Part shown: one piece after another, positions 32,492 through 33,829 of the stretch
Position numbering within the stretch: the first letter of the stretch is position 1
Layout of the letters: each line of letters starts with the position of its first letter
DNA from: an uncultured Pseudomonadota bacterium
Lineage (GTDB): Bacteria > Babelota > Babeliae > Babelales > RVW-14
Length of the DNA stretch: 64,000 nucleotides
Assembly (NCBI GenBank): GCA_964446935.1
Contig: CAYUQI010000001.1
Location: 4,320 to 68,319, forward strand
Reading direction: 5' to 3'
Notes under the pieces: generated by a model
What the model was told of the DNA's origin: nothing
Databases searched by the model: none
Seen by the model: the letters and a program-made list of their open reading frames with translations, nothing else
Made by a program: the position numbers and the translations under genes

Positions 32492-33829
32492 ATGAACATT
32501 TTAAGAAGATTCTTACCTTTAATTTTAATAACAAGTGCTTTCACTGGAGATATACGACCAGCATGCCGAGAATTTAGACCAGAACCGCCACAGAAAAGAA
32601 GAAAGTTAAATGACGATTCTGATAAACAGGTAGTATCGAATAGCTGTTTTACCATTAAAATATTTGAGCAAATCGCAACATTTTTGAGTAAAAAAGATAA
32701 GGCAACGCTTGCAGCAGCATGCAGGTATTTGCACGCGTATCTGGGAGATGTACCGGTTATTGAGAATTTTTATGTGACCCCACAAATATTTTTTGATAAC
32801 AAAGCGTTTGAATGTTTCTTGAAATTTGTTGCGAAGCATCAAGAATTAAAGGAAATCGTCTTTCTTCCTGCTCTGCCTGTCTATGGTAAAGAAGATGTAT
32901 GGGAACGTTTCTTTGTTGAAGGGGATGAACACATATGCTATTCATCAGTAAAATTACCAACATTCGATGATGATTGGTATAGAAATTTAAGTACTGGATG
33001 GTTAGATAAATTTAATCGTTTGTGTAAGCAAGTTCCGGTAAATACAAAGATTTATATCGGCCTCTTTATTCCTCAAAAAAATGCAACAGTAGCTCTAGAA
33101 AAAATCAAACAGATGTCTTTTGGTAGACAGATTATTTCACAAAATTTTGATTATTCACCTATACATATGGTTTTGCATGAGAATAATGAGCCTGTTTATA
33201 TTTTTGAAATACCAACGACATTTCAAGGTAATTATAATTTTTGGGAGTGTGGATATTATACAGTTTTTAATGCATGTATTCTTCATAATGTGTTGAGTAA
33301 AATCAATGAAACATCTCCTCATTGTTTATATCGATTAAATTTAAAACGATCAAAAGCGTTTGAAGAGTTTTATCAAGCATTAGGTAATAAGTATCCAGAT
33401 GTTGTTTTAAAGCGTAAACAACAAGAAAGATTGCATTTCAGGAAAGGAATGGCGCTTTTTGATGCCGTTTTTTCAAGAAAAATAGAGGAAACGCCTAATG
33501 TGTTATTAATTGTTCAGGATGGCGGTCTTTCTACTCAGAATTATGACTACAATTGTAAGTATCTGATGACACGCAAATCTTTTTCTGCCGAAAAGCCTAT
33601 TTTGGTTATCTTCAAATCTTGGTCTCATTGGAATTGTTTTGTTTTTACTAAAACAGCTATATTCATTGCTGATTCAACCAGCGCAATTAAATATGCACAT
33701 CCAAAGCTTCTTATTAATCTTTATCGTTATTTAATTACCCAATCACAGCATATATTTGAAACCAAAGAAGCTGCAGCTGGAACAGACAATCCGCTTATTT
33801 ATTTTAATGTGCGAGACTTATACTTTTAA
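32492..33829 (+). CDS. secreted hypothetical protein, paralogue B: the same putative cysteine-peptidase core plus NLS-like and F-box-like N-terminal segments
   Basis: Alignable with paralogue A over its whole length (YVTPxxFFDxxAFExFLxFVxKH, GWLDKFxRLCKQ, PVYIxEIP, WECGY, QQxRLHF, SHWNCFVFTKxAIFxxDS, ITQSxHxFET). Extra segment PPQKRRKLNDD...CFTIKIFEQIATFLSKKDKATLAAACRYLHAYL. Confidence 0.6.
   Translation: MNILRRFLPLILITSAFTGDIRPACREFRPEPPQKRRKLNDDSDKQVVSNSCFTIKIFEQIATFLSKKDKATLAAACRYLHAYLGDVPVIENFYVTPQIFFDNKAFECFLKFVAKHQELKEIVFLPALPVYGKEDVWERFFVEGDEHICYSSVKLPTFDDDWYRNLSTGWLDKFNRLCKQVPVNTKIYIGLFIPQKNATVALEKIKQMSFGRQIISQNFDYSPIHMVLHENNEPVYIFEIPTTFQGNYNFWECGYYTVFNACILHNVLSKINETSPHCLYRLNLKRSKAFEEFYQALGNKYPDVVLKRKQQERLHFRKGMALFDAVFSRKIEETPNVLLIVQDGGLSTQNYDYNCKYLMTRKSFSAEKPILVIFKSWSHWNCFVFTKTAIFIADSTSAIKYAHPKLLINLYRYLITQSQHIFETKEAAAGTDNPLIYFNVRDLYF

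Follow-up and report, generated by a model that had tools for sequence, protein, structure and literature searches.

The 64,000-nucleotide stretch of DNA analysed here (the window) carries two tandem genes on the forward strand, paralogue A and paralogue B (B is P0001), with gyrB lying convergent to B. Paralogue A consists of a hydrophobic N-terminus, the basic patch KKLK, a middle domain and a peptidase-like domain, and has no F-box-like stretch; B shows the same serial arrangement with an F-box-like stretch between the basic patch and the middle domain. The features of the locus are:

31121..31149, + strand: sigma-70-like promoter match TTGACT-17-AAAAAT upstream of paralogue A (consensus match only)
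31196..32443, + strand: paralogue A, 415 aa, its start being Met5 of an open reading frame that opens at 31184
from 31304, + strand: KKLK patch of A, aa 37-40
from 31844, from 32225 and around 32273, + strand: peptidase-like motifs of A (WECGY, SHWNC and DS, respectively)
32492..33829, + strand: paralogue B, open reading frame of 445 aa
32492..32548, + strand: signal-peptide-like segment of B, MNILRR followed by FLPLILITSAFTG, from hydropathy
32585..32617, + strand: NLS-like basic patch PPQKRRKLNDD of B, aa 32-42 (KRRK, aa 35-38, at 32594..32605)
32645..32749, + strand: F-box-like stretch of B (in hhalign, aa 54-86 against F-box profile columns 8-40)
32759..33181, + strand: middle domain of B, aa ~90-230, ~140 aa, with a sub-threshold match to Pfam DUF7255
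33182..33751, + strand: papain-like cysteine peptidase-like domain of B, from invariant and near-invariant residues
33851..33885, no strand: hairpin with a 16-bp GC-rich stem and flanking T/A runs, between the convergent B and gyrB

The two genes lie on the same strand 48 nt apart with B downstream, and are probably co-transcribed; the hairpin beyond B is likely a bidirectional terminator closing the A-B unit. The promoter match ahead of A is weak evidence, since shuffled versions of the region contain more such matches than the region itself. Identity between A and B is 44%. Direct reading confirmed both B sequences singled out in an earlier note on this DNA, PPQKRRKLNDD and, at aa 52-84 (32645..32743), CFTIKIFEQIATFLSKKDKATLAAACRYLHAYL, and alignment bore out its claim that the B N-terminus is expanded relative to A, with ~30 additional residues falling between two conserved motifs, ‘ACRE’ and ‘YVTP’. 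No compositional anomaly was found in this insert, a tblastn search for a second copy in the window and in all loci found none, and the B gene is identical in two further metagenome assemblies. The neighbouring GyrB is closest to those of Babeliales/TM6 MAGs, and the family member P0002 is located in a TM6 MAG of Yeoh et al.; the bacterium that carries A and B belongs to the Dependentiae (TM6). This phylum comprises abundant intracellular parasites of protists, hardly any of them cultured, and we know of no characterised Dependentiae effector. TM6 genomes encode a type II secretion system along with eukaryote-like domains, the F-box among them (PMC4776705), and in Chromulinavorax signal peptides are present in 44% of coding sequences, including most ankyrin effectors (PMC6561590).

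The N-terminal segment of B has a mean Kyte-Doolittle value of 1.8, and an equivalent hydrophobic N-terminus is evident in all full-length family members. Sec signal peptides have a basic n-region, a hydrophobic h-region of 10-15 residues and small residues at -3/-1; from its hydropathy, the N-terminus of B is a candidate for this type. In the basic patch beyond it, KRRK lies in a region of AF2 pLDDT <50, as would suit an exposed, disordered signal, and PPQKRRKLND fits the K-K/R-x-K/R consensus of classical monopartite nuclear localisation signals (SV40 PKKKRKV, c-Myc PAAKRVKLD), with six of nine positions identical to the c-Myc signal. It differs from these signals in sitting 15-20 residues past a signal-peptide-like segment. 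K[KR]x[KR] occurs 10 times in the 600 residues of N-terminal linker across the family versus once in 3199 residues elsewhere, a positional enrichment of ~50-fold, and is found at the equivalent place in nine of the 12 members counted, with KKLK in paralogue A. The patch is therefore not confined to B, contrary to the earlier note; its description as NLS-like is supported by the fit to the consensus and the conserved position. The B cluster could equally be a dibasic processing site.

Downstream of the patch, the stretch had been proposed to follow the hydrophobic register of an F-box. The sole Pfam match of the B fragment is indeed PF12937 F-box-like, in that same register (E 0.093), and an F-box family was matched by none of 100 shuffles of the fragment. 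This Pfam search, which the earlier note had put forward as a check, thus returned the expected family as top match but at 13.0-13.2 bits, below the gathering cut-off of 24.3 bits (20.5 bits for PF00646). The hydrophobic core and the Asp and Cys-Arg positions are kept in register in B; the canonical Leu-Pro, which opens H1, and the Trp of H3 are replaced by Phe53-Thr54 and Leu80. Against an F-box profile B leads the 44 window ORFs by a narrow margin (hhalign 21.1 versus 17.5 for the next ORF); it scores 21.5 in hhalign alone, and comes 122nd of 3,417 when searched with a plain 17-F-box HMM. There was no match to the PDB in phmmer with the B fragment, and a word-index search with the 65-aa insert yielded no candidates. 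Taken alone, B is a marginal F-box match, and its copy is the most degenerate and least F-box-like of five.

The other copies are found in the distant relatives P0011, the tandem paralogue of P0011, P0012 and P0014. In these four the module, comprising hydrophobic N-terminus, K/R cluster and F-box-like stretch (13-15 residues from basic patch to stretch), adjoins the N-terminal side of the peptidase domain directly. In Smith-Waterman comparison the B insert scores 64 with the N-terminus of P0011, 68 with that of the P0011 paralogue and 53 with that of P0014; shuffles gave ~21±4, and none of 2000 attained the observed scores. By sequence comparison the B insert is thus clearly homologous to the module of the four distant relatives, and since it there stands directly before the peptidase domain, the N-terminal module is a genuine, separable domain rather than a random insertion. 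This supports the initial view of a fused module, which stands N-terminally ahead of a Cys-His-Asp peptidase-like domain. The accompanying view that the F-box-like helix occurs only in B holds within the close family, as the stretch is absent from A, P0002 and P0003/P0006 with no cryptic copy, but fails for the family at large, given the four distant carriers. The middle domain, paralogue A and the B orthologues were each considered as sites of a cryptic F-box, an idea rejected because none was found.

Likeness to F-boxes beyond chance, in the register first proposed for B, emerges once the homologues are included. In a scan of 24,736 Pfam models the top match was an F-box family for all four module sequences (PF12937 for three, PF00646 for one; E 0.015-0.1), and all four matches share one register, spanning only profile positions about 7-35. 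The scores of P0011 (12.8 bits), P0014 (15.5 bits) and P0012 (13.8 bits, to PF00646) illustrate that no member reaches the Pfam gathering score (12.8-15.5 bits versus 20.5/24.3), and with the whole P0014 protein PF12937 (E 0.041) stands behind a non-F-box match (E 0.016). In hhalign the four-sequence module alignment matched 17 Pfam-verified F-boxes with a probability of 88.7%, P 2.5e-6 and a score of 30.1 (28.7 without B), compared with 8.2±1.8 and a maximum of 15.1 for column shuffles (n=300), a null in which helical periodicity is not preserved. In a reciprocal HMM search, FBXW7, MET30 and BTRC took ranks 1-3 against a background of 3,409 decoy segments from real proteins, 675,000 residues in all. 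Searching the PDB with the module profile gave nothing significant, the Fbw7 F-box appearing at E 1.4. These profile comparisons indicate a family-level F-box similarity that is weak but real. The counterpart of Leu-Pro is Tyr-Pro in P0011 and Cys-Pro in P0014, one residue out of register, and the Trp position in these two is Leu or Phe.

Only five sequences carry the module, and they are mutually related. Exhaustive searches revealed no further carriers: a metagenome scan with the module returned one spurious non-coding match only, and nothing came of viral scans, whether with the module or the catalytic domain. NCBIfam gave no match, and a genome-contig profile search with the family alignment gave no relatives. 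A and B belong to a very small orphan superfamily. MAFFT alignments mixing long and short members misplaced the module and were left out of module inference.

The AF2 model of P0011 (pLDDT 73, pTM 0.71) shows in the F-box-like region (pLDDT ~70) three helices, 62-69, 74-83 and 85-92, whose breaks match the H1-H3 breaks of F-boxes, a motif of about 40 residues. In the AF2 model of B this region has two helices only, at pLDDT <50; the full-length B model, built with five sequences, is poor (pLDDT 55) and its Foldseek matches are meaningless. Compared with known F-boxes (PF12937/PF00646; FBXW7, Met30, beta-TrCP; Legionella AnkB and LicA), ~35 residues of the module are in register with H1-H3, through the shared pattern I-F/L..I..L...D...L...C-R/K..hydrophobic. 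Further likenesses are that the stretch is N-terminal to another domain and that the carrier is an intracellular bacterium of protists, and Legionella LicA, a Skp1-binding F-box fused to an enzyme domain, provides a precedent for such a fusion. The module differs in scoring below the family thresholds, in the replacement of Trp and of Leu-Pro, the latter central to Skp1 contact, in a helix 1 that is one residue shorter in P0011 and P0014, and in having a peptidase as fusion partner in place of LRR, WD40 or ankyrin repeats.

In B the stretch is followed by the middle domain, which is restricted to the B-type branch of the family, and then by the peptidase domain with Gln245 (33224), Trp251, Cys253 (33248), His379 (33626), Trp380, Asp394 (33671) and Ser395. 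Across 12 members the four catalytic positions (Gln, Cys, His and Asp/Asn) vary little or not at all, the Asp394 position being Asn in P0016. The (near-)invariant HW...DS and Q...W-x-CG-Y motifs align residue for residue with SENP8 and 6dg4, and conform to the motifs ‘sHW...(15-17)...DS’ and ‘Q..(N/D)..W/D-CG-aromatic’ of the Ulp1/SENP proteases (MEROPS C48, clan CE; SENP8/NEDP1/DEN1, 6dg4). However, the linear order in B is Gln245-Cys253...His379-Asp394, in contrast to the His-Asp...Gln-Cys order of C48, and joining the termini of the family brings the Asp-to-Gln/Cys spacing into agreement. A profile permuted in this way gave C48 proteases as the top three matches in the PDB (SENP8 2bkq, E 3.9e-4; Ulp1-like 6dg4, 6.2e-4; SENP8 1xt9, 1.1e-3), each as a single collinear alignment through HW..DS..Q..CG, whereas the native-order profile found 6dg4 alone, at E 0.089 and in two pieces; likewise, Pfam C48 is matched by two of nine permuted sequences versus none of the nine in native order. 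From these alignments the peptidase domain is best described as a Ulp1/SENP-like (C48, clan CE) active site with its halves swapped by circular permutation.

The family further differs from Ulp1/SENP in a helical insert of ~110 aa after the Cys helix, and in lacking a significant match both for the native-order profile and in Foldseek. In Foldseek, the peptidase domain of the P0011 model had no significant neighbour in the PDB or BFVD, so the CE-clan assignment rests on sequence profiles (E ~1e-3, from a hypothesis-driven rearrangement). The best CE match in Foldseek was OtDUB 6ups, at E 1.0 over 87 columns, from a sequential aligner that cannot follow the permutation; nor can Foldseek isolate the F-box-like motif. 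Peptidase C78 (UfSP), matched weakly by P0013 (E 0.003-0.009), was set aside because P0013 is the only member to do so and because the Asp-x-His arrangement of UfSP is absent.

Ubl deconjugation would be a theme shared with the CE effectors of intracellular bacteria (ChlaDUB1, XopD, OtDUB, CidB). The circularly permuted papain-like enzymes EschOTU, LupA and PPPDE/DeSI are precedents for Ub/Ubl proteases of bacterial effectors that retain fold and activity under permutation (PMC7396840, PMC10318531). They differ from the present family in having OTU-type or C97 folds, and the permuted families listed in the consulted passages of those two papers include no C48-type site threaded Cys before His.

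The pairing of this N-terminal module with a permuted Ulp-like protease suggests a secreted effector directed against host ubiquitin-like systems. The explanation we prefer, which we give an even chance of being correct, is that A and B are tandem effector-type genes and that B combines an F-box-derived motif, a K/R cluster and a permuted Ulp1/SENP-like peptidase, the motif (aa ~54-86) being a degenerate, three-helix, F-box-derived one. B would be exported and reach the host cell, where the K/R cluster would promote nuclear import, the F-box-like helices would dock B onto host Skp1 or another partner, and the peptidase would cleave a ubiquitin-like modifier, be it SUMO, NEDD8 or ubiquitin, off targets in the vicinity.

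The B stretch might instead be a relic that has decayed from an F-box (Leu-Pro to Phe-Thr, Trp to Leu) and lost Skp1 binding, leaving a linker or a helix that docks another partner. This would fit the standing of B as the least F-box-like of the five copies (hhalign 21.5 alone; plain-HMM rank 122/3,417), and the stretch is missing in three of the four B-type lineages while all catalytic residues are kept, so that the module is dispensable for the core function. We nevertheless regard decay as unlikely, as the core, Asp and Cys-Arg are kept in register in B, three assemblies share the same uninterrupted reading frame, and many functional F-boxes are without the canonical Trp. We consider it similarly improbable that the stretch is no F-box but serves a secreted cysteine protease as pro-region or regulatory segment, comparable to cathepsin propeptides, with the dibasic cluster as processing site or topology determinant. 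Signal peptide, helical segment and papain-like domain would be the classic zymogen order, all Pfam F-box scores are sub-threshold, the PDB profile search with the module was not significant, and the column-shuffle null ignores helical periodicity. Yet an F-box family is the top Pfam match for 4/4 module sequences among 24,736 models, and real F-boxes outrank 675,000 residues of real proteins in the reciprocal search. An obligatory folding or inhibitory prodomain would, moreover, not be expected to be separated from its peptidase by a 140-aa domain, as in B, or to be missing from A and the B orthologues. The F-box resemblance of a pro-region would be a convergence of amphipathic helices.

The earlier note envisaged a UCH-like deubiquitinase that, through a Skp1-docking F-box and an NLS unique to B, joins SCF and edits the ubiquitin products of that ligase. 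Of the features invoked, the F-box-like and NLS-like ones are real, and the spacings Gln-x5-Cys and His-x14-Asp are similar to those in UCH enzymes. The UCH-like (C12) core itself was rejected, as neither profiles nor structures show similarity: full-length B has no Pfam match above threshold and no match to Pfam UCH at E up to 10, and no UCH chain occurs in the Foldseek lists and no UCH or Josephin chain among PDB profile matches at E up to 10. The sole significant relatives are the C48 Ulp/SENP proteases, reached after permutation; as the basic patch is not B-specific and the module is present in other family members, we hold the proposal as a whole to be very unlikely.

If our preferred reading is true, B would be a concrete, testable Dependentiae effector and a fusion of F-box and Ubl protease, for which no precedent was found in the literature examined. 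It would also present a natural C48-type active site with reversed threading, relevant to the proposal that clans CA and CE are related by circular permutation. Should the F-box-like stretch not bind Skp1, the finding would shrink to a secreted orphan cysteine protease to which a helical module is attached as an accessory. A bolder version, which we think distinctly unlikely, is that the family is an undescribed permuted Ulp1/SENP branch in some members of which, including B, the NLS and F-box park a deneddylase or deSUMOylase directly on host SCF/cullin complexes in the nucleus; cullin-RING ligases would then be shut down or edited by the bacterium from the inside. The CE-type active site of such a branch, with its CA-type Cys-before-His threading, would be the mirror image of EschOTU.

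Paralogues A and B form a tandem pair, 44% identical and separated by 48 nt. A NagB-like fusion gene lies upstream of A on the opposite strand, and gyrB lies downstream of B, convergent with it.

31184/31196..32443, same strand as B: paralogue A, 415 aa when begun at the Met of the database copies
32492..33829, same strand as A: paralogue B, 445 aa
32759..33181: middle domain (B aa ~90-230), B-type branch only
33182..33751: peptidase-like domain of B (aa 231-420); that of A at 31800..32400
33851..33885: strong hairpin between convergent B and gyrB, 16-bp GC-rich stem, T/A runs on both sides
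upstream of A: promoter-like match

The hairpin is probably a bidirectional intrinsic terminator. The 779-aa ORF at 28650..30989 (minus strand) resembles glucosamine-6-phosphate deaminase in one region (NCBIfam PRK02122, 1.3e-55), to which a long C-terminal extension is fused. Relative to A, B carries ~30 additional residues between the family-conserved motifs ACRE and YVTP, the expanded N-terminal segment described in the earlier note, and the two peptides singled out there are placed exactly (PPQKRRKLNDD, aa 32-42, 32585..32617; CFTIKIFEQIATFLSKKDKATLAAACRYLHAYL, aa 52-84, 32645..32743).

Known Dependentiae are obligate intracellular parasites of protists. By its sequence affinities the window comes from a Dependentiae (TM6) bacterium, because the GyrB adjoining B shows 55-59% to its nearest sequences, from Babeliales/candidate division TM6 MAGs, and because P0002, the nearest relative of B outside the window (48% identity), lies on LDIV01000003.1, in a TM6 genome. 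Yeoh et al. 2015 (PMC4776705) include LDIV00000000 among their TM6 genomes, and published comparisons of TM6 report F-box, WD40, LRR and ankyrin domains together with a type II secretion system (PMC4776705). Of the CDS of Chromulinavorax, 44% encode a Sec signal peptide, most ankyrin effectors among them (PMC6561590).

Searching 5.8 billion proteins by word index gave four clusters (B, A, P0002 and P0003), an exhaustive phmmer search with B of 1.84 billion representatives gave seven proteins, and a profile search added two further family members; no annotation of the family was found in any resource searched. B, A, P0002 and P0003/P0006 constitute a B-type branch with an extra middle domain of ~140 aa, for which matches to Pfam DUF7255 are sub-threshold but consistent (B E 9e-4, aa 138-181; P0003 E 0.025). 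The short-type relatives (P0010-P0016, ~300 aa) match B at aa ~236-417 only. By neighbour joining, the catalytic domains resolve as (A,(B,(P0002,P0003))) with bootstrap 191/200, P0010 falling as sister to the whole B-type branch.

The layout of B's N-terminal module recurs in the short-type P0011, P0012 and P0014 (a fragment) and in the tandem paralogue of P0011, directly before the peptidase domain and in the order hydrophobic N-terminus, K/R cluster (KRPR, KKSR or KRQK), 13-15 residues and F-box-like stretch (for example IFEYILSFLDQPDKDNLTSTCRFLFERV; the equivalent in B is IFEQIATFLSKKDKATLAAACRYLHAYL). Because B aa 44-90 scores 64, 68 and 53 by Smith-Waterman with the N-termini of P0011, its paralogue and P0014, beyond the scores of shuffles (~21±4; 0/2000 at these scores), the insert is homologous to a module recurring in the superfamily; against P0012 the score is weaker (32, reached by 20/2000 shuffles). 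A, P0002 and P0003/P0006 lack the module, and hhalign finds no cryptic copy in them. The claim that the stretch is present only in B thus holds within the B-type branch but not beyond it, and the insert, lacking in P0002 and P0003/P0006, is conserved instead in distant short-type relatives. The catalytic-domain tree and this distribution call for about four losses, or else for two gains or transfers, and under either history the module acts as a separable unit.

This module is probably derived from an F-box. For the B fragment the sole Pfam match is PF12937 (E 0.093, 13 bits, aa 58-82 on profile positions 9-33), an F-box family as anticipated but below the cut-off of 24.3 bits; of 100 shuffled fragments, 6 reach an equal or better E-value with some Pfam family, and 0 match an F-box family. 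One main rival takes the stretch for a helical pro-segment or regulatory element in a secreted protease, with an F-box-like periodicity that arose by convergence. In each of four module sequences the top Pfam match is an F-box family in the same register (12.8-15.5 bits, E 0.015-0.1), and P0014 as a whole protein matches PF12937 (E 0.041). Aligned by hhalign to 17 canonical F-boxes (17/17 strong PF12937 matches), the module alignment gives a probability of 88.7%, P 2.5e-6 and a score of 30.1 over 33 columns, against 8.2±1.8 (maximum 15.1) for 300 column shuffles and 11.2 for the reversed alignment; the score is 28.7 without B and 21.5 for B alone. A reciprocal HMM of five Dependentiae segments, with 3,409 decoy ORF segments (~675,000 residues) as background, ranks FBXW7 (E 0.0055), MET30 and BTRC first, second and third, and a profile of the module searched against the PDB gives no significant match (Fbw7 F-box at E 1.4).

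The other main rival is that in B the stretch is a decayed, non-functional relic of an F-box. B is the most eroded copy: canonical Leu-Pro has become Phe-Thr and Trp has become Leu, replacements recognised earlier, and a plain HMM of the 17 F-boxes places B 122nd of 3,417, with P0011 and its paralogue 2nd and 4th. Of the 44 window ORFs, B scores highest against the F-box profile, though narrowly (21.1 vs 17.5). In the AF2 model of P0011 (pLDDT 73.4, pTM 0.71, from an alignment of 11 sequences) helices 62-69, 74-83 and 85-92 (pLDDT ~70) break where F-box H1, H2 and H3 break; the model of B is unreliable in this region.

KRRK of B fits K-K/R-x-K/R, and PPQKRRKLND is similar to the c-Myc signal PAAKRVKLD. 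The patch is not peculiar to B, as had been thought, since A (KKLK), P0002 (KKQK) and P0016 (PPKKRARRE) have equivalents at the same position. Because the 12 members counted have the motif 10 times within the 600 residues following their hydrophobic N-termini and once in the remaining 3,199, the patch is conserved in position throughout the superfamily, which is compatible with a nuclear localisation signal and also with a dibasic processing site. P0016, a distant family member from a metagenome, has a very SV40/c-Myc-like PPKKRARRES (aa 66-75) without the F-box-like stretch, which shows that patch and stretch are kept independently of each other.

In the peptidase domain Gln245, Trp251, Cys253, Gly254 and Tyr255 are invariant across the superfamily, His379, Trp380 and Ser395 near-invariant, and Asp394 conserved save for Asn in P0016, residues that read as a papain-like Gln/Cys/His/Asp set. 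Native sequences have no match in Pfam or NCBIfam except a weak C78 match in one member, and the native-order profile has one weak PDB match, the Ulp1-like SUMO protease 6dg4 (E 0.089), with both catalytic motifs aligned in swapped order. For this reason the His/Asp half was moved before the Gln/Cys half in silico and the PDB (177,635 sequences) searched with the permuted profile. The best three matches are SENP8/NEDP1 2bkq (E 3.9e-4), 6dg4 (E 6.2e-4) and SENP8/NEDP1 1xt9 (E 1.1e-3), the top rank of SENP8, a deneddylase, not to be over-read; each is a single collinear alignment of 80-100 residues (sHW...DS, helix, strand, Q...CG), with spacing that agrees across the artificial junction. Pfam Peptidase_C48 matches 2/9 members after permutation (E 0.015-0.044). 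Because significance is reached only after permutation (E 4e-4 vs 0.089 native), a C48-type site threaded Cys-before-His is suggested, and we regard a Ulp1/SENP-like active site in this reversed threading as fairly likely. Foldseek, a sequential aligner, finds no significant match, with faint CE-clan hints (OtDUB E 1.0, phaeovirus Ulp-like protease E 0.61). The UCH-like core of the earlier note is rejected: no UCH or Josephin chain is among the PDB profile matches in native or permuted order, and the domain is not a UCH. PMC7396840 and PMC10318531 give precedents for circular permutation among Ub/Ubl proteases (EschOTU, LupA, PPPDE), and describe clans CA and CE as thought to be related by permutation.

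The analysis establishes domain order, module homology, profile-level F-box similarity, conservation of the patch and catalytic residues and similarity to permuted C48. The evidence for B itself is sub-threshold and entirely computational. B could undergo Sec-dependent export and delivery into the host, a route also proposed for other Dependentiae effectors; the K/R cluster would direct nuclear import, the F-box-like helices would dock onto Skp1 or another partner, and the peptidase might strip off a ubiquitin-like modifier close to where they dock. A precedent is Legionella LicA, in which an F-box joined to an enzyme binds Skp1 yet forms no full ligase. Bacterial F-box effectors and CE-clan deconjugases are each already known; the combination of F-box-like module and peptidase, and the permuted C48 topology, appear new.

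Tandem pairs recur in the superfamily, A and B in the window having a counterpart in P0011 and its 328-aa paralogue (1238..2191 and 2275..3261 of locus L087), the latter also with basic patch and F-box-like stretch. As called, P0002 (9998..11380 of locus L003) begins ~46 residues ahead of the conserved hydrophobic N-terminus and overlaps the ORF before it; translation probably begins at an internal GTG/Val, at VNFLKIFFF.
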